From Squalus acanthias (taxonomy: Eukaryota), in assembly GCA_030390025.1 (NCBI GenBank), contig CM059427.1, positions 22,568,001 to 22,632,000 of the forward strand: DNA of 64,000 nt. The letters are read 5' to 3'. A model generated the notes under the pieces. That model searched no databases. It saw only the letters and a program-made list of their open reading frames with translations, and was not told the origin of the DNA. Below are positions 5,626 through 39,487 of this stretch, one piece after another; the stretch's first letter is position 1; each line of letters starts with the position of its first letter. Position numbers and translations under genes: made by a program.

Positions 5626-8600
5626 CTGAAAGAAGAAAATGTAATTAAATACTTTCAAATCTATTAATACTATTTCTCTATATCCTATATATTTTAGGTC
5701 ATCTTCCTGGCTGCTATCAAACAAAGAAAGGAAAAGAACTTGCAACAGGCCGTGCAGATTCACTTTTGTTCTTACACAATGTATTGGCTTTATTATTTAC
5801 ATAAAAAATGTGTGGGAAAAAAACAATGTTTCCTTGTGGGCTTTAATCCAATAACTATGGCATTTGACATTTTTTTTTAAAAAGAAAAAAATTACTAGGC
5901 ATCATTTTATTTCCTCCAGAAATTAGAAACACGATGTTACTGAATAGTAATGTTGTGTGATTAATGAGTGCGAGCCGCATTGTCAGTGAATTCAAAAAAC
6001 AACGAAAGAACGGGTTAAATAGCTTTAATTTTGGTAATGATTAAAATACGTAATTTGGCTTTTATTTGGAAATATTTGACAAAGAATGCCTCCCGATAAT
6101 TTGAATACACGATAACAAATCATTTATTTCAAGCTATTTTCATAATTCAAATTGTTATTGCGGTAACATAAATCCATTAACAGCACCGAGCATTTCATAT
6201 CGAAACTCCCATTTAAAGTGCCAGAAATGTGCCTCGAGGGTGGACTTATTACCCAATGAGCATGATATTTTGGGGCCTACTGCACTTGGTATGAAAATGC
6301 ATCGTTCTGTGGTGGCCTTTTAATGGAAGCTGGGTCTGAACGGAGCATTAAATAAGAACCACAATTTTATATCATGCAGTCTTTTGGTTTCCTCGAATCT
6401 GTTCCAAACCACTATCTGTAAACTGACAGTATCAACATTCTTCTTTATAAAAATAAATATTTATTTCTTTTCTCGTTGATGTTTAAATATATGCGTTTAA
6501 GGAAAACCTACCACTGTTGTCGAACATTTTGAAACAAGCCAACATAACAATACAAATATGGAGGTTTGCAAGAAAGAGCCTGGCGCCATGTATAAAACTC
6601 ATGAATAATGTATTATATTGACAGGCGGTTGGTTATGCTTTGTCATTGGGATACCAAACATCACGTATTATTTTATATCGATTAGGCATGATCATAATAC
6701 GCGCAATAAACAGCTTGGTTATACAAAAAGTAACTAAAATGCAATAATACAGCATCGCTGGAGCCTCTAAACAGGCTCCGAACTCCAAATCAATGTGGAA
6801 GAGGCGAACGCAAGCTGAAGTCGTGCATAAACTGTATTTTAGTGAATTTTATATCAATTCAAAACACATGCTTAAAATTTGGAAACACATTTAAGAAAAA
6901 CAGCAACAGTGGCAGATCAAATGCACAAAGAAATCGCGGTCATTAGCTGACAATATGTAAGAGTCATAAGCCTTTGAAATGACCTTTGGCTTGTACAGCA
7001 ATAACTCACCACTTAATGAACAACCAACGGAAGCGCCTCCACTACCTCACAATACAGCCCATCACATAACTTCACCATGGCTTTTCTATCCCTCTTTAAT
7101 CCCACTAAGGCGCAGCACTTTACAAACTAGTCTCACCAACTTGTGTCGATATAATTTGAAGTTGGAAGAGGATCCAAATCACAGTCGGCAAGGCATCAGG
7201 TCCTCGGTCCAATGCCTCCCACCATAATGTGTGTAATGTATTCACGTGGCCATACGTCAATTGAAAAGCTTTTATTTCTCTGTAATCACTGGAAGTAAGT
7301 AAAGTATTTGCAGGGTAAAGTCGCTACGTTCCAAGGAAAGCGAGTACAGTCGACAAGCTTTAAACACTTGGTTGCTTTCAAGCTGTTATTGATAACTTAA
7401 GTGTGCTCAGCTATGATCTGGACGGTAAGTTTTGAAACATCTTGCTTATTAATTTCGCAGCAGTGTAAGGGAGCTCTCATATTACCACCCTAAACACGTA
7501 TAAGCAGACTAACCGTTAGCAGAATGAATACGTCGAAAAGTTTTGAAAACTTTCTTTGTCACTTTCCTAAATTGCTAAACTGAGTTGGCAGAAAAACTTG
7601 GGAATGATTACGTGTTTATTACTTTTACTGTCTACCAGAGCATAATGGAGCAGGGTCTGTCTATAAGTCCAAGGCGGTTACTGTACGTGGTGCCTTAAAA
7701 GTTTTGACTTTATTCAGAGATGAAAAGTTTTAAAGCCACACTATCAAGCGAATGTTGCGAGTTACCATGACGTGAGCTGTAGAGAGGTTTATTGAAATTT
7801 TAGGTGAAGTTATAAGTGAGTGGCCCCATCGAGCAAAATGAAATGCTACTCACAGTAATTGGATTCAGCTGACTAACATGGCAGCCCAGCAGCTTCGAGG
7901 CATGCAGCAATGAAAAATGTTCGACTCAAAAGTTTTTACCGAGCAAAGCACATATGCACGTTGTGAAACAACTTTTATACCTGTGGACATTCTGAGAAAA
8001 TGTCCAAATCCACATACACACACACATGGATTTGGACAATTTACGTGTACAAATTTTCATTAAGAAAAAAGGAAACTTCCTCCATTATTAACAATAAAAT
8101 TACAACGAATAATACTATAGTTCTATTGGCTTTAAAAATGGAATTTAAAAAAAAAGCAACTTCAATCACACTCCCGATCCTACTTTCTATCTACATCAGA
8201 CCAACATCTTATATACAGTAATGACATTAAGATATTATGTCTAAACGTGGGAATTATAAGGCGTTTTGTGTTTTAAAATTGGAACATAATACAGTTGTAT
8301 TCGGGATAGTAATTAATAAAAGTAAGTGAACGCGTTTCTGGAACTGGAACAGAAATAACTAAGTTAACATTAAACATTTAAATTCCACTGGAACGTCGCC
8401 TAGACACCAGGAAATATGATTAAAACAGGATGATTTTGTTTCTGAGCATCTACACAAGCTGGTTAATAGTGAAGTGCATAACTATAAGAATATTGAATTT
8501 AATCTATTATAGAGACTATCTTCTGACACGATTATTATGAGTTAAAATAATATTCGATATTTTATATTTAATATATTTAAAAATACGGATATACTGAGTT

Positions 8601-12500: not shown

Positions 12501-12763
12501 TTTCATGACACACAACTACGCCTTAATAATAATCCCATCGCAGTCTTACTAACGTTTACCCCCCACCTCCAAAATGCAGCCGGTACAATTTTTTTGCAGC
12601 TGAAGTTTATCATAGTTGCTCCAAAATGTTAAAGCTAATCCGAATAGAAGGTCAGTATATCTGCCTACTACAACTTATAACTGTCGCCTGGTAGCACATA
12701 GTAAGAAGCAAAGGGCGCTATTCATCAAATATATATGACAGTTACATTCATTTGCTATCTTAC

Positions 12764-13000
12764 CAGAAACAAAACTAAAATTGTTTACCTACCAAGCTTC
12801 CATTTTTCAGTTTCTGGCAACGTACTACAACAGCAAAGTGTGATAGCGGACCATTTGTATATAATATTCTTGGGATCTGTTCACTTTTCAAGTGTGATAG
12901 AGTCCTTTGCTTGGCCGATTAATGACGACGCCGTGTTTCTTTCGGGACGTACTGCATTAATTATTTAGTAAATCACGTGGCCGAATCAAATATAAAAGGA
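12764..13000 (-). promoter_or_regulatory. Putative distal HoxD3 promoter plus non-coding exon
   Basis: GGCCACGTGATTTACTAAATAATTAATGCAG...GTCGTCATTAATC (E-box plus homeodomain sites). Candidate donors at 12792 (GTAGGT), 12788 (GTAAAC) and 12763 (GTAAGA). Confidence 0.55.
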
Positions 13001-13585: not shown

Positions 13586-15160
13586 TGCGGGTATGGAAAA
13601 AATACTTCTATGCATACAAACAGCACACAGCTAGATATAGGGTTAGATGTGGTTGTGGGAGCTGTGCTATGCGGCCATAGATATAAATATGCAAGTTGAT
13701 TGATTGTGATTGAGATCATATGTGACGTTATGAATTTTGAATGATATAACAGTTCAGAAATCATGATGTTGTTGACTTTTATGTTCTATAGTTCTCATGT
13801 TTGTGTATTCGATATTTATATGACAAATGATATAGTGAAAGAACCTGAAAATAATTAAGCTTCTAAATTTAAAACATTTGAATTATAAATTGTAACCAGT
13901 GCCCACACTAATACGTGTGGCTGGATAGGTTAAATATTGATAAATTACATGGCTAAATGAATGTGAGACGTTATCAATTGACCTTGGTGGTAACTGCGGT
14001 TAAAAGTAGGCTGCTTTTCAAGGAGATAGGTGTTGCACAAAAGTCAAAGTCAGATACTGCTTGCAGCCTCTTTTAACATATATATGTTCACGCAATTTAG
14101 ATTGTATCTTAGAAAAGACAGCACATGCTGCTGATTAATTATTACTTATTGTAGTTGTTTGCGTACATTGGGTCTCAGTTTCAGCGATTAGACTGCTTTA
14201 CGAAAATATTTTAAAAGTTCGTTTAGTTTCACTTTTTCTGGGTAGTCATAAAACAAAAAGGAGGCTCCATTGTACTCAACTTTCATAGAAGACGATGCAG
14301 ATTTTTTTGGGGGGGTGGGGTGGTTATGAGTTATAGCTTAGCATTAACACGGGCCAGACCGAAACACCTACACAATAGGGTGCTGTGTCCACTCGGTGTC
14401 GAAATGTGTCTTCTTTAATTAAAAAATGAATAATGACGAAATTATGCGGACTTTATCCATAATATGGATGCAACGGTGCTTGAGAATAGAATTATTTACA
14501 ACTGCAAAACTCGAAATCTTTTATTTTGGAATATTCATTGTTTTGTTGGGTATTTTACCATAGAATTTAGGTGGCATGAATAGATTTCAATTCTGGATTG
14601 ATAAACAACATATATTATTATTCTATACAAACGTCAACCGTTGTAACATGATTTCGAGTATTTTAAGCATATAACTAAATGTGGCAAAACTGTATTTTAT
14701 GGCCAATTTGTGCAGAAATAATTTAGTGGGGATCTTAATGCAAATGTTGGAAGATGAATGCCTGGGAGTGTTTCTGAACGTTTTCTTTATTCAAGCAGCA
14801 AAGAAAGGGAAGCGGGACCACATTGAGTTGAAAATGAGCAAAGTTTGAAGCCGAGTAAATCAACAACTTCTATGTTCTGTCATCAGAGATAAAGTGTAAA
14901 AGTGCGGGGACCGGAGAAAAGTGGAGCTTGGTGGCGCCACGCTTTCCACTAAAATCCGCATCTCTTGCAAATGGATGCAGAAGTTGCCACATGCAGAAAT
15001 TGGAGTAGTTCATACGTGAGAACCTATTTCAACTGGCTTTAACTAGATGGTGTCTGTGTTAAAACACATAGAAAAGGCGAAGGGTAGGATTTAGTCCAAA
15101 AGGTCAAGGGTTTAGAGGTCAGTCCTCCAGGCTGAAATACAGCTAATCGAATAGAAAATT

Positions 15161-15177
15161 TGTCCTCTTGGTGAACC
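15161..15177 (-). promoter_or_regulatory. HoxD4 3' neural-enhancer DR5 RARE
   Basis: Minus strand GGTTCA-CCAAG-AGGACA, about 2.5 kb 3' of the HoxD4 stop. Same form as the known Hox4 3' RARE. Confidence 0.85.
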
Positions 15178-20185: not shown

Positions 20186-20272
20186 GGCATCGACCATATA
20201 CTCCCCTAGAAACGAATCTGTGACCGAATCATCACACAAATTCGGTTCTACAGGGTATATATAGACGACGGG
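20186..20272 (-). ncRNA. MIR10B: mir-10b precursor hairpin
   Basis: Mature TACCCTGTAGAACCGAATTTGTG at 20257-20235 and complementary 3p arm ACAGATTCGTTTCTAGGGGAG. Canonical position 5' of Hox4. Confidence 0.97.
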
Positions 20273-21914
20273 TTACAAACCAATTCGGCGACTAATTCCA
20301 AAATGGAAAAGTAGTTTAAAAAGCTGCAGTTCCAAGCTAGCCCCAAAGAGTTAATGACGTGTAATATTAATAAATAAGAAAATAAAATCCAGGCAAAGCG
20401 TTTGTTAAATAATGTAATTGTTTGGCCATTGAAAAATAATAGAAGTCGTTTCCTTATAGCTGGTAGGTGGTAGCAAACATTTATATTTGCATTGTTCGGC
20501 AGTGGGAGCAACATGGATCAGCGTGCAGAGCTGGTTTGTGCATACAGTCTACAAGGCAGAAGTTACTATTTGTTACTGTGTTTATGAACCCTTCGTATTT
20601 CACAGAGATTTTATAGGAAACAGTTTGTACCGATCCGCTCCAGCTAACATTACTAAGTGCCCCAGCGTGAATCAATAATTGCTCCAGATGCTAATAATTT
20701 GAACTCACCACTAACAAACCGCAGGATGTTATAACAAATATCACCCGGCCTAAACAATTCCTAAATCTAATCAAATACAATTTATACATGATAGCACAAA
20801 TATTGGTTTATTCCAAAGCGTTTTCCACTCATTGTTACTTTCATAAAATGATAGCAGCCCAGGAAAATAACGATTGTTTGTTCTATTCTAATCTCTCCCA
20901 TTTCCTAGGAGCTGGATCAAATAATACTGTCGGCAGTATACTTCAAAATCTCATTATACCACCAGTCAATTGGATTGTCATATGCAGGGCCAAAAATATA
21001 CAATTTAATCTGCCAGCTAATCAGGATTCCCTTTGCCTCGAACATGTCTAAGGTGGTTTCTAAACTCTAGTGCATTGCAGGTTCCTTACTTTGCTGTCCC
21101 CACTGTCCCTGCAGTGCCACCGCGTTGTGTGTTAAAGGCTGAAGGGCACGGGGTCAGGCTGAAATCATTTACAAACACCTCGGAAAGTTGCATTATAATT
21201 TTCACTTTAGCGACCGCCACACGCTGAACCTTTGCTAAGCGTGTGAACCTTTCCGAACTAACTCTTCAGCTAAGCTTACAGTAATTCTATCCTTAACTCT
21301 GTAGTTAAAAAAAACAGACACACGAGAGGCAGGCTGAGAACAATTATAAACGTACGCCAACGAAAATGAGTAAGTTTGTTCGACAATACAAAGATTACAC
21401 TTCAATGTTTTGAGATGCATTGATTAACAATGTAACACTGAAGCTGGACTTTTTGACACTAAACGGTATCTTCACTTGTTTATTTCTCTGCTGTTTCTGT
21501 CGAGTACAACAGACAAAGGTTTCGGGTTATCTACGTTTTATTGCAGAGCAGCCAAACTAATCCTCTACAAATGTTCAATCTCATATTTAATATCTCAGTA
21601 AGTTGATGTTTTGATTATTTTACTTTTGTAAAACATCCATAACGTCGCTAAAAGTTTGATCTGATTTACCTGTGATTTTTTTTTTCGTTTACCCCAGTGC
21701 ATTAGGAAAGAAAAGAGCTAAACAGTTTTCGACAACCAATGGCGCCAACGAAAGCACCAGCAGTGAATTCTGCTTTTAAAAGCCTTTTTGCAAAGAAAAT
21801 ACCAGATATCGTTACATCATCCGATAATTCGAAAGCCAAATCTCTTTACAGTTCAAATTATCGCACATTGTGAAGCTGATTGGTGCTACACATTTTAATA
21901 TTTGTTAGACGCTG

Positions 21915-21931
21915 TGACCTGCATTTCACCT
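21915..21931 (-). promoter_or_regulatory. HoxD4 5' DR5 RARE
   Basis: Minus strand AGGTGA-AATGC-AGGTCA, matching the known HOXD4 upstream RARE. About 3.1 kb 5' of the ATG. Confidence 0.9.
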
Positions 21932-25848: not shown

Positions 25849-26140
25849 TTGCTGCTTTTCCAGCGCAAAGGTAGAAGCCACTAGGACACTGCCAATCCAT
25901 AGCGGTGGAACAGGACAGCTTGCTTCTTGGTGTCACTTTCCACAGACCCTCTCGAAAACACTAACCATCTGCACTTGTCTGCTCTTAACCTAATATATGA
26001 TGTGAATTATATTTTGGCTTGTCAACTCCCCTAACCATAAAACAAAGTTTAATGGCATCACGTGCCCCTCTACAGCCAGTCAGGACCTGGCTCTGTGGCG
26101 TCCATATAAATAACCCTTAAACTTTAAAACTTTTATTCAC
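25849..26140 (-). promoter_or_regulatory. Putative distal HoxD4/mir-10b promoter plus non-coding exon
   Basis: TGACTGGCT...GGCACGTGATGCCATTAAACTTTGTTTTATGG...TTGACAAG, with donors CAA|GTAAGT (25849/25848) and GAC|GTGAGT (25728/25727). Confidence 0.6.
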
Positions 26141-29000: not shown

Positions 29001-30779
29001 CAGTGAGAATACTTGCTGTGATTTAGCGAGCCTTGTCCTACAGCGCCTCCTGCTGGCAAACATGGAGAAAACCAGGCCCATAATCAACAAAGCAAAATCG
29101 AAAGAGGCTTTGACGTACACACGGTTTGCTACGGTTTCTTCGGAATGGGTTCATTTTTTTTAAATGGTTCAAGCTTTAAGTTAAGAGAATTGTTAGTTAT
29201 GAAAGCTGCTTGCTGTTATCCGAAATTATGCATTATGTATCTGTCGACATGTATTGGAGCACACACGCAAAATGTTTCTGTAAATACAAAAATCCTGTTT
29301 AGTGATTTTATTAGTGTATGCGCTCGTGTACAGTACAGGTGTAAAGTGCTTGGCAGAATTGTCATATGTTGACGTGTTCTATACAACTACATAGAGCCTT
29401 TACATTTTATGCGATGCTTTTATTATGGAAAATTGTAGCACAATAATTCAACATATTTTGGAGCACAATTAACACCTCTTTTTTCTAATTCAGTTGAATT
29501 AGAACACCTTTCTTTCGTATTAACTGTGTACTTGACCCCTTAGTTTGATGTTTACTGTAAATAAATAATTTGATTCGTGGCGAATTGCCTGATGGAAATA
29601 AATCATAAATATTCGCAGTAATTATTACTACTGAAAAAATCAGATTGCGATTTTTGCTCAAACGGGTTGGGATTTTTAGATCCTTTTTCTTGTGGGAAAC
29701 GACGCCGTGGAAATTATTTTGATCGAAAAACTTAAATATACGATTCACAGGTAGCCTCTCCACACTTGCACACACTGCCCGCGGCACGAGAGTGATTGGA
29801 ATGTATTGTTTTCGTAGAACACTGCGCATTAGTTATATATCTTTACAGATTGTGCATTAAAAACCGGCTTTACAAAGTTTCCCATTAGCTTTTATTTGCA
29901 AATACGTGGTCCGTCTTTTGGTGTCCCTTGCCCACTAAAGTCAGGATTCTACATAAAGTATTTGTTTTCTGTTGTCATCAGGTACTGGTTTAAGAAAGAA
30001 AGGATTAACGCTATATGTTACTTTGTGACTGGTTAAGTCGACGCCGACACCAGTCTCGACAAAACAACATACCGAAAAGCTAAGCAGAAGTGTGTTATAC
30101 ACTTACTTTTATTTTCATTGTGCAATTCTTTGTGACCTTTATTGCGGTTTTCCCTTGTACAATCTACATTTTACACTATGGCGGGTGGTGGTATTTTCAT
30201 AAGCCTCTGAGGTCTGATGTACACTCCAATATACAAGCTGAGGCCATTTAATTAATCCGTACCGGAAGAGAGTCTTCGTCAAATATATACAACTTTCGAA
30301 AACGAATGGTGCAGATTGCAGGGACTGCACCTTTGGTCCGGTGTCTTTCTGTGCAGGGATAGTTTCGCGGTGCAGTATTCTACTTTAAACAAATCGAACC
30401 AGTTCGATCTGGCTAGAAATGCAGGAAAACTGCGAGGGCAATAAATGTAATATTTGAAAAAAGCATTTGTCTTTTCCGTTTTGATTAATAGGCGGATTAT
30501 AAATCCTAGAAACTGCTCCGGAACGGCGCAATTTAGAGAGGGGTAATGATGTCAAAAAGCGACTGCAGTAATTCGGGCCTGAAGAACTTTACAAAAGTCC
30601 ATCTATAATCGCAGTAATATTTAATACATGTGGATTACATTTATATGTTGCTGGTTGTTTTTTATGGAAATAAAAATGGGTGTTCCCATAACTACTTGTG
30701 TAAGTGAATTATTAAGCAATAAAATAGGATTCTCCGGTTATTTGGCTGCCCCACCCCACACACACTTGGTTTATCATAC

Positions 30780-30887
30780 GAACCAATATTTGATTTATAC
30801 GCTATGGCAGAAATATATTTACAGTATTTACTGCGTCGTCTTGTAGCGCTGTACAATCGAGGTATTTGTGCTCCTTTGCCTGATGCT
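30780..30887 (-). pseudogene. Possible highly decayed homeobox remnant (HoxD6-like)
   Basis: Gapped similarity to GRRGRQTYTRYQT and IKIWF codons at the position expected for Hox6 exon 2. Weak. Confidence 0.25.
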
Positions 30888-32082
30888 TATCACCGGAGTA
30901 TTTAAGAACAGGAGCGCTAAAGTATTGCAAAATAATTCAAGCCCAAGTATATTCCAAAGAAGATAGTATGCAATCAGGAACTGTATAAACAGGGCCCAAC
31001 CTCCACTGTTTTCAGCGCGAGAGTTAGAACGGCAGCCGTAAAACTGCATAGTTCCGAGTTATTGGGATGGTCTCAGGATTACAGTTTCAGTGTAGGCCTC
31101 GATTGAAAGTGTAGTGATTCTAGATACTACATCATATACTACAACTTATAGCGTGCGATTCGTTAAGCTTAAGTACATGAAAATGTAATATTTTAGCAAG
31201 TATATTTTAGATAAAATGCCATAATATAGGGTTTGGTTTTAGTTGTCCTTTGTGAACTTTGATTTGTGTGCCTCCCTTGTAATTCTGAGCTAAGAACGTA
31301 GTCGCTACACAGTCCAACTGACTCTGTCTAACGCTCGTAAATCTAACCTTGCCGCAGCCGCCTGACAGTCGGTGGAAGAAATATTGTCTTTGTCCTGTAC
31401 TAACAAATCAGGCCGCTCTTACACAACACCCGATTGAATAGTATGGTTTCTAGTGCTGAGTGGAGCGAAAATAAAAATATATATATTTTCCAGGCTACTG
31501 CCCCTTTGTAACCCTGAAACTTTTGAAACAGAATGGCCAGTATTGAAACATTTTACCCTTACACTGCACGCGATTGTGGATCATGTTCATACTGTGGAAT
31601 GAGCAAATCATTGCGTGCAGCACATACCAATTAATTTTTGTTGATTTTCACTTTACAGTGTGTTCGCCCTTGTAATAAATTCAGGAGAAGATCGCGGTCT
31701 GGAAATACGTTTGTTTGTCAACCCTGTGAGGAGAGAGCTGTCTCTGGAATCGCAATGGATTATTCCCGTTAAACTCCAGATTCAATCTGATGGGGAGTGT
31801 TTGGATTATGAATTGTTTACATTTACAAATTTATGTTAAAAGGACTGGAAAAGCAGCGTTATTAATTCAGAAGTGCTAAACGCTGTTGGCGATCAGATTA
31901 ACTTTTGACAGATGTTAATTGAAAAGATGTTTCCATTAAATGGTTAATTATAATATTTTGCTATTGTTATATTGGAATAGTTTGGAAATGAAAAATGCGT
32001 ATTGTCGGTGTAGAAAGTGTATTGCGAGTATAACTCCAGCGTTAAGCTTCCAAATAGACCGCTGGATACTGGCTGTAGATCA

Positions 32083-32108
32083 GCATACACATACACACAC
32101 ACACACAC
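32083..32108. repeat. (CA)n microsatellite
   Basis: catacacatacacacacacacacaca. Confidence 0.85.
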
Positions 32109-34336
32109 AAAATAGTGTCCCTGTTAAGCATTTTAGTACTTTTAGCAAAAATACGGACTAAGTGATCTTGAAGAACATAAATTAGATAATTCGACCTTAA
32201 AGATTGTCACTGGCATTGAGATTTGCAAATTTGCGTTTTCTGATTATTATATTTGTAATTTGGTTTTTCGGTTCAGTTTTATTTTTAATGTGTTTATATT
32301 AAATTATGTCTTGTCAAGAAGAAAACATCTAGGAAATCACAAATCAGCTTTTTATTGTATGCTAAAAAGCGCAGAGTGTAGCTATCGCATAACTCCCGCT
32401 AACCAGCTTGAGTTTATTGAAAAATATATCTAAAACAAATATTTATCTCGTTTGATTTTTTAACTGAGACGAAAAGAGCTTAATTAATAATATCTGCATA
32501 AGAATTATTGCAGTGAACCCAGACGATGCATTGACAATTATATGAAAACACACTATGTTACCCAATTAATGACAATTGCTGCGTGAAAATTGAGGTGAAA
32601 ATGAAACTGCTTTCTCAATAGAGAAAATAGCACTATGGACTTCAGCTTCTCCAATCTGATATAAATCGAGTATTATACATTTCTGTTTGTAGACCTTGTC
32701 TAAAAATAGACAGTTAATATCCGAATATTTACGATGTGATAAAGAATAATTATGACTTGGTTACAAATGTTACGATATCATTAAACGTTTATTTGGTTCT
32801 AGGAACACTTTGTGACCTTATTTCTTGCAGCCCGAGTTTCATTTCGACAAGGTACCTGTTGATCTGTGCGATGGATATAGGCACATGTAGATCAACGGTT
32901 TTCAAATCAGTCTTCATTTGCAAATATATACCGGATGCTAATAGCGAATTAACATCACTATAATTATACGCCATACGGATGATCAAACTAATATATTGTC
33001 ATTTTATCTGCTTCCAGTAAATAATCTGGAGACTGAAGGACGAACCACTTTATAGTCAAATGCCAAACACGACAATTCATTTCAAGTGGATGTAATTAGA
33101 AACTCCCTTGTTCAACTCTGATGTTAAGTTAGAAAAATCATGAACAATCCTCTCCGAGTACTTAATCCCCGGAAATACAAGCAACTGCCTTGGAAAAAAT
33201 ATAACAATAATAGACATATTTATTGATAAATTCATCTCTTGCTAACTCGCATGTCCTTGTTCTGCGCATATTTCCGCAGCAAGCTGTTGCAATTAAATAG
33301 TTAATATTGAGAAATAAGTGACAGGGGAAGTAAAGGAGCGCTATGTTTTTCTAGTGACTGCTCTGCTTTGCATTGTGAAAGCACTAAGGTGGGGTTGGGG
33401 CTATTTGTACCAAATTAAAGACATTCCCCAGGATGCAGACCTTATGGTTTTTATAAACTATACAATCCAAATTGGGTACAACTTGTTGCAGGAAATAAAT
33501 CATCAGATGGACGAACTGATACTGTTTACAGCTATGACAAAAAGCGCAGTGTTAGAAACATCTACTGAATCCCCACTCATTACTAGCATATTGAAACCAC
33601 AAGTCTGATATCGACTGCAGGATAATTACTGTAAGGGTACCTCTCATTTGTGCAAAGTACTGTCACGTGGTGAAATATCATTAAGATGTTAGCCAAACAT
33701 TTCCCTAAAAGTCTGATAGTTTCTTGGGGTTTCTAAAGCTAATGATTACTGCATGGAATTATTAGGATCATTAGCACAACGTGTATCATTCGTCACTACA
33801 GCATTTCCTTAGACAGCGCAAAAGAGTTCAACTAATGTCCTCGTCTGCAAGATACCAAATAACGTGGAAAACCACATATCTGCGAAAACAGAGTAAAACC
33901 GGCAATCACCGGGCATCACTCCTGCAAAATAACAACAACAGTAGCGCTACTAGTAATTATTATTATTATAATCGTCCCACGGGTAAATTACGCAATCCGA
34001 TTGCTCTCCACTGTGAATCATAGGCACAAATGTCAGCTGCCTTGTGGCGAAGCTTTCATATCAAAAATAGGCACGAATCGCAACTCTCCGTCTTATTGCG
34101 GAAAATAAATATTTAATTAATCTGCACCACAGCCACCATTTGAATTCACTCGACCACCTGGACCTGGGTAGAATGTGCCGTTTTAAAATCAGTCTTGTTG
34201 TTTGTTCATTTATGTCGAACACTCCTCGACCTCCAAAACAGCTGCCTAGACCCCAACCAACGAATCCAACGCCGTTCCCTCCTATGTACAACAGTGCTAT
34301 CTGCAACAACAGAGCAGGGGAAAGCACAGCACTTAC

Positions 34337-34800
34337 CGCTCTCAGGGCGCTTCCCCAGAATAGTAACCAGGTGGATGTTGTATTCCATTTGTAATTGATC
34401 GATTAATAAAATAACTTAAAAAAGGTAAAGCGAATTGAAGGGTAAATGAAAGACTGTTAGCAGACGTCAGAGGTCTGTGAGAGTGATCAGATTGCTAAAT
34501 CCCAGCATGAGTCGAATGACTTCCTCATAGTTGGACAGAAAAGGACTGAACACCGCGAACACAGCGGAAAGTGTCCTTTTTTGCAAGCAGCTGGCGCCAA
34601 ATACCAACGACAAAAGCAGGCAAGGGGAGATACTGACAGAAAAGACGGTTTGAGACGAGTTAGCAGCGGAATGCAGTGAAATATTCACAAGGGAAATCAT
34701 GAAAAGGCCATGAACGCAGTTACTAGATTCACATGACCAAAGCCAACCAATAGGAGCGCCGTCTCCGTCGTAAAAGGTCCATTACAAAGTTGTAAATTTT
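34337..34800 (-). promoter_or_regulatory. Orphan Hox-type promoter cassette plus non-coding exon (probably the H8/7-6 four-cluster element)
   Basis: TTTACAACTTTGTAATGGACCTTTTACGAC...CTATTGGTTGGCTTTGGTCATGTG, then donor GCG|GTAAGT at 34337/34336. No adjacent coding exon. Confidence 0.6.
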
Positions 34801-36924
34801 CTTCAAACAAAAAGGAATTCGCAGCAATTCCTTGCGGATTTCGCAAGTACAGCTCGCAAGCGCCATGTTTCCTTTAACGAGTTCTTTGCTACAGCTATTT
34901 GCTGTAATGTGTATTGTAACGAACGCCTTAACCAACTATACAGGCGGAAGTGCAGCAACAACATAAACAAAAAGGGAAATATTTCCACTGCAGTGGGCAT
35001 TTCACAGTACACCAATCAAACCCCTACAATTTGTTTGAAAATCTATACTTTTTTAGTTCATGTTTTAAATACGTCAAGTACGTTTAAAAACTAGTTCTAC
35101 AAATAATTAAACGTGTAACGATCACAATATCTAATGTTGCCAATTATGAATCAGACAGCTTATTCGTTTTGTTTGGACGTGATGTTCTGAGACCATCCGA
35201 TATAGCCGAGTTAAGAGTCGAAAACAAACGAACCTGAAGCGTGTTTGGCTACTGAAGAAATATCAAAACTACGGCGGTTGCCTTCCTTCAAATAACAATC
35301 AATAATAAAAGCAATGTGTCAACTTATTATAAATGTTCCATGGTGCATTCTACACAGGTGAGAAACTGGAAGTTAAGGATCAGCAAATCTAGCTATCTGT
35401 TTACACATCGTACCTCAATTTCTAATCACAATGGAACATTGCATTATACTCCTCGTGTTTCCAGTGTAGGGGAGAAAATTACCCTATAAAGTAAAATAAC
35501 AACACATCCCAGTAGTCAATAAGAATTGGGTTAAATGGATAAAATAGCTTCGTCGCTGGGTAAATATATTCAGCATGAATGAAAGTGTAAATGGTTTGAA
35601 TCAGTTCTTTCGGTGATTGTGCAGGACCATTCCCTTTACCGGCAGTGAGCGGGCTCGGCAACTAATGTTAAATTCACGGGAACCGCATTCATTAGGAAAA
35701 AAAGATGATGGCTGGTAGATATTTGATATTCGAACTTTCTACCTAACCCCATATTTCCCGCGGGTTTAACTCTGGAGAAAGGATAACAGTTGGCTGTCTC
35801 TGGTCTAATGCTTTGAAGTGATCTTACGGGGAAAATACAGAACCGCCTGCTAGAAATGTACGTGTCTAAGCGCCGATTTCTCAAACTTCATTTATGAAAA
35901 CGATAAACCGCTAGAAACGTTAGACCAAAAATAAAATGCAATATGAATAAAACGTTAAACCTTGTAAGTTATCCTTACTCTGGTTCCGAAAGATGTTTTT
36001 CTGGGGTGGGGGGTGGAGGGATTTCGGCAGAGGTTTGAATAGAAAAAAAACAAATGAACGGGCTTGAAGAACCCAGAGAAACCTTTTACAAGGATTCATA
36101 AGGAGCATTTTTTAATGCATGTCGCAGCATTTCTGGCAATTTTTGATCTACATTGTCTGCTAAAATCTATGCAAGTATGACGCTTAACGCCCACGTCAAA
36201 GGGCTGATTCCACCCAAAAGCCTCTTCCTTGTGTGCACCATTCCTTCAGTGAAAGCGCGGAGGTGCTTGCCATTCCTATCATCTAATAAGACTATCGATA
36301 AGGCCCAGCTCTGCCGTAATTGGTGACCGCGATTGCGGCAAAGACCCGTAATTGATTGTCCAATTTGTAAATGGCAGCGGATGCAAAAATAACTTTTTAT
36401 TTATTTCATTCTTTGGTTTAGAACTTTTTGTAACAGATTTGATGAAATTTTAAAATAAGTGTTCTTTCCAAAAAGGAGCTCAGATCACATATCATATTGA
36501 AAAAAACCATCTGGTTAAAAAGCAAGAGAGGCTTGTGAAAAACTATTAAAAGTTTGCGAAAAGACCACCCCCCGGCACGAGAATGCAATTTCAAAAATAA
36601 AACCCTGATATTACTTTACTTATAGTTGATTTATTCTCTGAAATTATTTATCTACGTTATAGTCGGGCACCCTTGTGATATACAATACATTTCACAAAAT
36701 GTATTTGTATTAAAATAAAGTATGATGCCATCGAGATTAGGATACATAAAATAGACACTTTAAAGTCTGACAAAACTGGAGTTTTCAAACTTCGCTGTTG
36801 TCCGTCTGAATGAGTCCATTGGCACTTCATATGGCCACCTACACCTGATGGAATGAGGACATTGTCAGAATATGACGCCTGGTTATGTAATATATTATTA
36901 TATTCGATTACAAGTCTGAAATTG

Positions 36925-37510
36925 TTTCGTAAATCAGAGATCTTAATATCATCGCTGTGTTATCAGAGTGGATTCTGGAGTCCGCTGGTAAAATGTGTAC
37001 TGTTATCTTTAGTTCTTCAAATAATCGCGCGGTTTTGATTGTTTGCACAACATTTGAAGTACAATGTTTGCTTTTTTTTCTTCTAATTGTTTCCTGTTTG
37101 TTCTTATCAATATTTTTTCTTTATTTAGGCTTATCATCATGCGCAAAGGAAAGGTGGAGATAGAAAATTGCCAGTTCCGATGGTTAGGGTTTATATGCCC
37201 ACTGATCCTGTTAAAGTTTAGATGTGGCTTGATCGCTGCTTAAGTAAAGTTTAATGGAAAGGCAGACGGTTACTTCGACCACTGAAGATTCTGCTTCCGC
37301 CCTCAGCCTTTAAACCAGAAAAGAATAAATTGGAACCCAGAAGTCCACAGTTTGCCGAGTGATTTGTAGTACTAGAACTTTTATTGTCGGTTTTACGAGA
37401 TTTGTTGATATACGTGTACAGTAGACCGCAGTTTAACACCAACCACTAGCTTTTACAGCGTCGTTTTAGCCACACATGAGCCAGGCATGTGATCTGACTA
37501 GCCAATGGTC
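36925..37510 (-). pseudogene. HoxD7 relic: promoter, 5' UTR and decayed exon 1
   Basis: TGGTGTTAAACTG...TATATCAACAAATCTCGTAAAACCGACAATAAAA...CTACAAATCACTCGGCAAACT-GTG resembles the HOXA7/HOXB7 leader, with ATG replaced by GTG at 37348. CCAAT and E-box upstream. No intact reading frame. Confidence 0.75.
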
Positions 37511-38127
37511 ACTCGAAAGACATTTAACTTGGGGCATAGATAAACTAATATTCTAATCATCAGCCATATCATTAACTTTTATAACTACATATAAAGAATT
37601 ACGCCATCTTCGGGCTTTTGCATCGAACGAACAGAGTTGCGGTGCTGTATGGCAGACGTACACCTTGTGGCCACAGGGATAGACAAACAAAATTAAAATA
37701 CATCTGATTTAACCTTACAGAAAATACTCGAAACAGCCACAGATCGCTGGCAAAATAGTGATCCAGCGATCTCAGCTGATTATTTCAATAAGAGCACAGT
37801 GATTTTCTATCAAATGAATTACTTTTATTTTCTTTGGGATACTGGTCGTAAAATGAAACAAGTACACAGTTAAATTGAATCAACATTTATTAATTTAATC
37901 ACATTCGACCATCATAAAAAGTGACTATTGCTGCGGAATACCTTGTAATTTTTTTTGCTTGTGTTTATAATATGCGTATCGGAGAATAGTTAATGGTTGA
38001 GAATTTCCAGCCGCAATACACCACCAATTAGTTTACACGCACAGTAATTAAGACACATCGCAAGTGCACCTTTTTTTCTATCATTAATTAAGTGTGTTCG
38101 CATTACATTCCAAATAATCCGTTCTAT

Positions 38128-38148
38128 TAGGCAGTTCATGTTGTTGGG
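38128..38148 (-). promoter_or_regulatory. Near-perfect miR-196 complementary site in the HoxD8 3' UTR
   Basis: mRNA sense CCCAACAACAUGAACUGCCUA pairs with miR-196a along its whole length, apart from one G:U and one bulged miRNA U. Confidence 0.9.
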
Positions 38149-38541
38149 TATAATCACAAAATGCTAAATAAAATCAACAAACTAAATCAATCACGATATC
38201 ATTTCATATTTTCGTCCTATTAAAAAAGCAATAAAATCTTTATTCAAAATGGCTATTTCTTCTGCGATTTTGCCGCTTTCCACTTTTAAAGGGAGTTGCA
38301 AAATTCTATAGGACGGTTGATACTCTATCTGTCGGAGTGTGATTGAAAAGGTTAAAATGATGCACACAGACCTCATTAGAAAGAATGTCGAATTAAGGCT
38401 CTAAAGAAATTCAAAAACAGGTGGACTGTTTACACAAAACTAGCCATCAATGTGCTGGAGGATTCATTCTGATCAACACGGTTAACAGTGGAATTGGCAC
38501 AAACTGAATGAGGTTTTGCTTTGAGGCCAAAGGGGGTAAAG

Positions 38542-38837
38542 TTACTTGGTCTCCTTTTCTGTTGTCTCCTGCTCAGGCTCTTCCTGTTCTTTCTTGACCT
38601 CTTCCTCCTCCTCGTCGTTCCGAGAGGTTGGGAATTTATCTTTGTTGTTTTCTTTTTTCCATTTCATTCTCCTATTTTGAAACCAAATCTTCACCTGTCT
38701 CTCAGTCAGTCCCAGAGCATGTGAAACCTCGATCCTTCGCTTTCGAGTCAGATACGGGTTGAACAGGAATTCCTTTTCGAGCTCCAGCGTTTGGAACCGG
38801 CTGTAAGTTTGTCTCCCTCTGCGTCTGCCGGGCGCTG
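38542..38837 (-). CDS. HOXD8: Hox-D8 exon 2 (homeodomain)
   Basis: [70 protein letters not shown]... Tandem acceptor TAG|CAG|. Spliced product 240 or 239 aa. Confidence 0.97.
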
Positions 38838-39060
38838 CTAAAGAACACCAGAAAGACAAGAAACAATCAACAGCGGATACAATGCACACAATCAAAGAAC
38901 GACAGACTAGCAACAAGGGCAACAATCTTTGCTTTGCTCGGCACTGCTACACAAAGAAAGTGTTCCTATAAAAGCCGACTATTACAGATAGCGTTAAACA
39001 CCTTGGCGGTGTAACTGAACAGTAAAACGTGAGATGGAAGCTAATTTTAATATATCCAAC

Positions 39061-39487
39061 CTTGAGGTCTCATCCAGGGAAACATTTGAGTAGGAGACGA
39101 GTTCTGATTTAAGTGCTCTGGTTCCTCGCCAATATTACTGCTAGACGATTTACAGTCAGGATATTGTACCAGATCGGCCTCTTGCTGTGTCGTAAAAATT
39201 TGCTGTCTTTGTAAGTTATCGTATCCGTAAAATTTAGAGGGGTCACCATGACACGTAATTCCACAAGGATTCTGTTGAAAGCCAGTATTAGGAAGTGCTG
39301 ATGTCCCATGATGGTAAAATTCTTGAACTTGAGCTGGGTGCTGGAAGCTGGCGCCGCTGCTGGGACCATAGACCACAGCGTGTCTACTGGTCACGTCTTG
39401 GGGAAACCGGCAGTCGTAGTAAGTGGGACTGAGGGCTTCTCCTGGCTTGTACTTGGAGTAGAATGGATTTACAAAATATGAACTCAT
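39061..39487 (-). CDS. HOXD8: Hox-D8 exon 1
   Basis: [17 protein letters not shown]...[13 protein letters not shown], donor G|GTTGGA, phase 1. Confidence 0.96.

Follow-up and report, generated by a model that had tools for sequence, protein, structure and literature searches.

To our knowledge, no jawed vertebrate carries an intact HoxD7 gene, and we likewise know of no intact HoxC7. The interval between HoxD8 and HoxD5 in the shark Squalus acanthias raises the question of whether the missing gene has left anything behind and, if so, what this remainder might still do. A reading made from the sequence alone (hereafter the sequence-only reading) had placed a molecular fossil of HoxD7 in this interval, based on a likeness to the 5' leaders of HOXA7 and HOXB7. 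HOXD7 is listed as absent in human (PMC1570148), and none of 80 Hox7-exon-1 matches is named D7 or C7. Here, we follow up the proposal within a window of 64,000 nucleotides (the whole stretch of DNA analysed), replacing the human leaders used there with the real paralogues from the same genome.

Setting and identity of the element

The minus strand of the window contains HoxD11, 10, 9, 8, 5 and 4 and the start of HoxD3, with miR-10 at 20193-20264 as the sole Rfam match. Exon 1 of HoxD8 shares 99% identity with the representative of a protein cluster that has 30 members, the 15 listed ones being all shark or ray HoxD8, and the window is thus assigned to an elasmobranch HoxD cluster. The candidate remnant lies about 1.0 kb past the HoxD8 stop and 8.5 kb before the HoxD5 ATG, on the cluster strand and, as the sequence-only reading had noted, near HoxD8 poly(A) signals (AATAAA at 37891 and 37829). 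A sequencing run that another study produced from this organism contains 94% of the sampled words of 36800-37800, so an assembly artefact appears improbable; sequence data of near relatives contain 40-55% of the sampled words of the remnant kilobase. Among the runs containing these words, none is labelled as RNA; five runs that may be RNA contain 28-51% of them, which we do not count as a sign of expression. The strings quoted in that earlier reading were all recovered from the minus strand at the places given for them. Together, the Hox7-like promoter and leader span 37508-37349 (minus strand) and include the following features, with negative numbers counted from the former start:

38542..39487 (-), intact HoxD8, the upstream neighbour, with its stop at 38542
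37508-37486 (-), CCATTGG/E-box block, one of the quoted strings
37502..37506 (-), CCAAT box (ATTGG on the gene strand) at -158; HoxA7 -164, HoxB7 -154
37486..37491 (-), E-box 1, CACATG, 15 nt past ATTGG as in both paralogues; CACATG in HoxA7, CACGTG in HoxB7
37473..37478 (-), E-box 2, CATGTG, 13 nt past E-box 1 as in both paralogues; CACGTG in HoxA7 and HoxB7, still CANNTG here
37349..37441 (-), Hox7-type 5' leader with GGTGTTAA (-92), TATATCA (-64), TCGTAAAA (-50) and CAAATCA (-18)
37441-37429 (-), TGGTGTTAAACTG, quoted string
37412-37379 (-), TATATCA...CAATAAAA block, quoted string
37386..37399 (-), invariant 14-mer CTCGTAAAACCGAC, exact in D, HoxA7 and HoxB7
37380..37385 (-), AATAAA in D only (ACTGAA in HoxA7 and HoxB7), which may be a poly(A) signal or belong to a second site of the Cdx/Hox13 type
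37369-37349 (-), CTACAAATCA..., quoted string

Seven motifs occur in identical order in the D remnant, HoxA7 and HoxB7, and the positions of TATATCA, TCGTAAAA and CAAATCA are the same in D and HoxB7 and are -65, -51 and -19 in HoxA7. For a quantitative comparison, the 200 nt before the GTG at the former start were aligned with 20 Hox leaders from groups 1-8 (clusters A, B and D, plus a single C gene); Hox groups 9-13, outside this set, were compared by whole-cluster blastn, among the matches listed. With HoxA7 the remnant reached a score of 83 (z 18.5) and with HoxB7 one of 67 (z 15.0), while all 18 other leaders gave z values of at most 3.2. The proposed likeness to the HOXA7 and HOXB7 leaders in order and spacing thus holds for the same-genome paralogues, with no comparable match to the other leaders compared. 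In a blastn of the D8-D5 interval, 37340-37446 matched the HoxA7 leader with 69% identity over 107 nt (E 8e-11) and 37346-37412 the HoxB7 leader with 75% over 67 nt (E 1.5e-7). The two leader scores are at the low end among living D-versus-A/B leader pairs, for which the range is 18-193.

The 14-mer CTCGTAAAACCGAC has five exact matches in the 3.7 Gb genome (43 for the reversed control), three of which lie in Hox7 slots, namely in the D element and in the leaders of HoxA7 and HoxB7 (contigs C4 and C13, respectively). It was through this pattern that the paralogues were found, as a genome-wide DNA search with 37250-37560 returned the window itself only. The two remaining matches (contigs C7 and C2561) lie in a common, different context with no homeobox within the 10 kb examined and were set aside, as were all 20 matches of a metagenome scan with the pattern, none of which had a homeobox and whose leader scores (28-38) are what the pattern alone yields. 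We take the 14-mer to contain a posterior-Hox/Cdx-type site, and TCGTAAAA, in the invariant core, and CAATAAAA are presumably sites of this type. In D, CAATAAAA follows 5 nt past TCGTAAAA, and both words are common throughout these Hox clusters. The D-only AATAAA at 37385-37380 is followed by CA and a GT/T-rich stretch.

A further paralogous element lies downstream of the remnant:

34653..34870 (-), separate A/B/D-paralogous element with ATTGG and an E-box, located between Hox7 and Hox6 in clusters A and B; donor at 34336

It matches the DNA between Hox7 and Hox6 of both clusters (E 4e-18 for A, 1e-21 for B), so the order is colinear and the element serves as a colinearity anchor: the remnant sits upstream of the very element that follows HoxA7 and HoxB7 in their clusters, and the two together constitute significant colinear similarity among the paralogous clusters A, B and D. 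An 'H8/7-6 FCS' was reportedly described by Kim in 2000, and paralogous conserved non-coding Hox sequences are said to have been described by Matsunami in 2010; we assume that 34653-34870 is probably the 'H8/7-6' element, which it fits better than the remnant does. Given the specificity for Hox7, the position between HoxD8 and HoxD5 and the second A/B/D element following in the same order, we are highly confident that the stretch is the promoter and 5' leader of a lost HoxD7. The Hox7 identity is founded on leader and position and not on the coding traces described below.

Probable decay of the coding part and retention of the leader

Downstream of the leader, the following features were recorded:

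37346..37348 (-), GTG aligned in the column of the HoxA7/HoxB7 ATG; in-frame TAA at codon 13 (37312-37310)
36960..37345 (-), probable decayed exon 1 with identity at aligner background; N-L-F-F-S at offset 17, E-V-T-V-C at offset 72
36965..36982 (-), clearest coding trace, an 18-mer resembling codons for NFRIYP, in the frame of the GTG and at offset 366; p of about 0.002 in the block test
36927..36936 (-), TGATTTACGA, with no counterpart in the HoxA7 and HoxB7 introns
35156..35336 (-), homeobox remnant, a weak hint; 8 of 300 null regions as high, start approximate

The GTG at 37348 does occupy the start-codon position, as had been proposed, by alignment with the ATG of HoxA7 and HoxB7. The marks of a functional Hox gene are missing: besides the GTG start and the TAA at codon 13, there are stops in all three frames of the probable former exon 1 and no open frame, and no homeodomain motif was found from the HoxD8 stop (38542) to the HoxD5 ATG (28797). 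The peptide traces named in the sequence-only reading (N-L-F-F-S, E-V-T-V-C and a hexapeptide-like stretch) are present in the frames in which it had read them, but they are statistically weak and in part generic to Hox6-8 N-termini. Plain local and start-anchored coding alignments to HoxA7 and HoxB7 were not significant, and the anchored test was highest for HoxB8. A position-aware block test, with blocks set automatically from the HoxA7/HoxB7 protein alignment, gave a Fisher p of 7e-4 over 8 blocks, driven by the NFRIYP-like 18-mer, for which the offset of 366 compares with 366 in HoxB7 and 360 in HoxA7 (the hexapeptide-like 21-mer starts at 36982, at the same offset). When about 277,000 null anchors served as the reference, this test had an empirical p of 0.0003-0.056 in nine settings, eight of which gave less than 0.05; in every setting, this p was the lowest among nine paralogue pairs, and of 72 control tests, 5 yielded p values under 0.05.

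A frameshift-tolerant whole-exon profile of 57 Hox7 sequences was matched or beaten by 59 of 600 and by 70-102 of 1000 null anchors (p about 0.05-0.16), and the Hox8 and Hox6 whole-exon profiles scored as well as or better than Hox7 on the remnant. For the first 129 nt, 2 of 600 nulls were as high with the Hox7 profile, but the same was true of 2 of 600 with Hox8 and 0 of 600 with Hox6. In 30 trials, our homeobox scan recovered 90% of artificially inserted homeoboxes carrying 0.8 substitutions per site; applied to 36950-34880, it found no readable homeodomain; 8 of 300 nulls were as high with the HoxA7/HoxB7 profile, against 49-184 of 300 with seven other profiles. The string TGATTTACGA (36936-36927), which we take to be a Pbx-Hox-like site, is indeed present after the hexapeptide trace as the earlier reading had it, but nothing corresponds to it after the HoxA7 and HoxB7 hexapeptides, so that its membership in the fossil, or its ancestry, is not supported. 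Exon 1 has thus probably decayed in place, with coding traces that are suggestive and not established.

Retention was expressed as the share of columns with the same base in HoxA7 and HoxB7 at which D also has this base, over 95 nt of leader and the first 120 nt of coding sequence. In the leader, D keeps 58 of 74 such sites (78%), and the leaders of the living HoxD5, D4, D3 and D2 keep 79, 91, 86 and 42% at sites where A and B agree. In the coding part, D keeps 34 of 86 (40%), compared with 72-92% in the living genes and an aligner background of 45 +/- 6% (60 random intergenic pieces). The difference between leader and coding part in D is significant (Fisher p 6e-5), and HoxA7 and HoxB7 agree equally in both parts (79% each). 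The promoter part is less kept than the leader (19 of 31, 61%), and E-box 2 has drifted in D from CACGTG to CATGTG. Leader remnants of the similarly missing HoxA8 and HoxD6 could not be detected in the HoxA9-A7 interval and at 29100-38500 of the window; orphan leaders thus do not persist by default, and the HoxD7 leader is the exception. What speaks most for selection on the leader is that it has retained 78% next to a coding part at background, given the equal agreement of HoxA7 and HoxB7 in the two. The earlier proposal that the coding part decayed under a selected promoter and leader gains support from these figures, and selection probably kept both after the protein was lost, as far as a comparison of paralogues over deep time can indicate.

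Possible roles of the element

The function that we propose, and hold to be evenly poised between right and wrong, is predicted from sequence: the HoxD7 promoter and leader may have been kept by selection as a promoter-like cis-element that acts on neighbouring HoxD genes and gives rise to at most a short, unspliced RNA. The protein-coding part of HoxD7 would have decayed while promoter and leader remained under selection; CCAAT- and E-box-binding factors together with posterior Hox/Cdx proteins would still bind the element, which would contribute to the timing or raise the output of neighbouring HoxD promoters, and RNA started at it, if any, would be short, unspliced and non-coding. According to the accessible text of a preprint, the promoter of mouse Hoxa7 lost its function when both E-boxes were mutated (bioRxiv 10.1101/2022.02.10.479744), and both Hoxa7-type E-box positions are still CANNTG in the D remnant. 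Within 1.55 kb downstream of the remnant, no splice donor of at least 6.5 bits was found, the best reaching 6.1 bits; four true Hox donors score 8.0-10.3 bits with the same donor matrix. This favours a promoter-like DNA element over a spliced first exon, although such donor-free stretches are not rare (9 of 67 windows of the same size).

The donor scores also bear on an alternative of the same origin, which we consider unlikely, namely that the element still serves as a genuine promoter with its first exon, from which a lncRNA or a long transcript spliced to HoxD5, D4, D3 or the miR-10 host would start. This would suit the retention of both promoter and 5' leader as far as the former start codon and the downstream position of miR-10 (20193-20264), and mammalian Hox clusters commonly give rise to polycistronic and antisense RNAs, one example being a D4-D3/mir-10b unit (PMC1831499, accessible part). 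Besides the shortfall of its best donor relative to true Hox donors, the AATAAA at 37385 and 37125 would shorten such a transcript, and 34653-34870 is better placed for the role, with a strong donor following it in each cluster, 391 nt on in D (9.4 bits), 437 nt on in A (11.4 bits) and 512 nt on in B (11.4 bits). As a strong donor is found there and none at the remnant, an alternative promoter for a long spliced transcript suits the second element better, and 34653-34870 is a likely candidate for a shared upstream promoter of long Hox transcripts.

Shark genomes evolve slowly, and a HoxD7 fossil might have survived neutrally through the slow change of shark Hox clusters; the faint colinear coding traces and the unchanged exon-1 length (offset 366) do show little deletion. 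Neutral decay should hit leader and coding part alike, however, which is at odds with retention of 78% in one and at background in the other, and makes this course quite improbable. Slightly less probable again is that the stretch, still of HoxD7 origin, was taken over by HoxD8 as a distal 3'-end or 3'-UTR element, as might be suggested by the D-only AATAAA (37385-37380) with its CA and GT/T-rich continuation about 450 nt past the last proximal HoxD8 signal; HoxD8 has three earlier AATAAA signals, and the kept CCAAT/double-E-box spacing and the upstream leader blocks would be left unexplained. An origin other than HoxD7, through later insertion or conversion of a HoxA7 or HoxB7 leader copy into the D cluster, would fit the fact that D sides with HoxA7 at 18 sites and with HoxB7 at 11 over 165 nt. 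We hold it to be very improbable, since the living HoxD5, D4, D3 and D2 lean equally to A, and slot, strand and order relative to the second paralogous element are all right.

For the promoter-like cis-element that we favour, a wider history can be outlined tentatively, and we rate it somewhat short of evenly poised. HoxD7 may have been lost before the split of sharks and bony vertebrates, with selection preserving promoter and leader for more than 400 million years as well as it does in living paralogues; both would regulate the HoxD cluster to this day, possibly in other jawed vertebrates as well. If this is true, a lost Hox gene has left its switch as working hardware of the cluster, which would be one reason why the clusters keep their spacing. 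As an element of 160 bp with named motifs, it is directly testable by reporter assay and deletion.

Known Hox remnants and further observations

No report of a HoxD7 remnant or pseudogene, which the sequence-only reading had suggested looking for, was found in the literature searched; older Hox footprint tables or supplements may list the stretch as an anonymous conserved element, and some matches to "HoxD7" refer to the HoxD70 scoring matrix and not to the gene. The accessible texts of Frith 2022, Mulley 2009 and Zakany 2017 (PMC5676926) contain nothing on the element. Known Hox remnants, as described in the accessible parts of the respective papers, include the HoxA14 and HoxB14 pseudogenes of Callorhinchus (PMC3707753), the caecilian psi-HoxD12 (PMC4470032), the bichir HoxA7 pseudogene (PMC1845163) and the cichlid hoxb7a (PMC2080641). 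The present case resembles these in that a dead Hox gene is recognisable in its own cluster slot. They have living orthologues or, in the accessible descriptions, were recognised by coding or gene-level alignment, whereas here the gene has no named intact orthologue and the signal is carried by promoter and leader, with the coding part at background.

Similarly, the element resembles paralogous conserved non-coding Hox sequences in being non-coding DNA common to clusters since the vertebrate genome duplications. Such pairs, including HOXA5&HOXB5 and HOXA4&HOXD4, are given by Matsunami and Saitou 2013 (PMC3595034), the text and four of five supplement files of which contained no HOXA7, HOXB7 or HOXD8 pairs when searched; unlike the pairs seen there, the remnant is paired specifically with a proximal promoter and leader whose gene is lacking from the HoxD cluster. 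The architecture is that of the Hoxa7 proximal promoter as set out in the accessible text of Akirtava et al. (bioRxiv 10.1101/2022.02.10.479744), with a double E-box upstream of a highly conserved leader, and an adjacent CAAT box is described there for Hoxa9. The mouse Hoxa7 promoter drives a protein-coding gene, whereas the D remnant has no open frame and its promoter role is a prediction. Hox pseudogenes and paralogous non-coding elements are thus already known, and the present variant differs in that the fossil is recognised by its promoter and leader instead of its coding sequence.

The remnant provides sequence evidence that the HoxD lineage once carried a Hox7 gene, otherwise inferred from the gap alone, and it illustrates how promoter and coding sequence of one Hox gene met opposite fates. 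Clusters A/B and C/D are sister pairs according to the accessible part of PMC10972751, and a search of the HoxC8-HoxC6 interval for a corresponding remnant would make it easier to date the HoxD7 loss relative to the second genome duplication; the remnant gave no match in the 30 kb around the HoxC6 of this genome.

Several minor observations were made on the Hox genes of this genome. The end of HoxD8 exon 1 offers two adjacent possible donor positions (window 39061-39056, minus strand), and the X1 and X2 isoforms of HoxD8 (240 and 239 aa) may reflect alternative splice-site use. Other non-coding stretches paralogous between HoxD and HoxA lie around HoxD5, around HoxD4 and upstream of HoxD3 (12710-12979, 15099-15176, 21890-21931, 25986-26084 and 6967-7277). 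Just outside the window, an intact-looking HoxD2 lies between HoxD3 and HoxD1 (C3:22560696-22561658, minus strand); HoxD2 is present in other cartilaginous fishes. A HoxC6-like gene with hexapeptide and homeodomain is found on a small, repeat-rich contig (C955:595457-598100, plus strand) as the sole homeobox in the surrounding 30 kb, and its leader has largely lost similarity to A6 and B6 (scores 26 and 38); elasmobranchs were reported to be without HoxC in the accessible part of a 2013 review (PMC3707753). Finally, a homeobox scoring like Hox10 lies outside the A, B and D clusters (C7:34359896-34360084, minus strand), with 63% identity to HoxD8 and nearly the score of HoxD10; it may be either a duplicate due to assembly or a stray HoxC gene.
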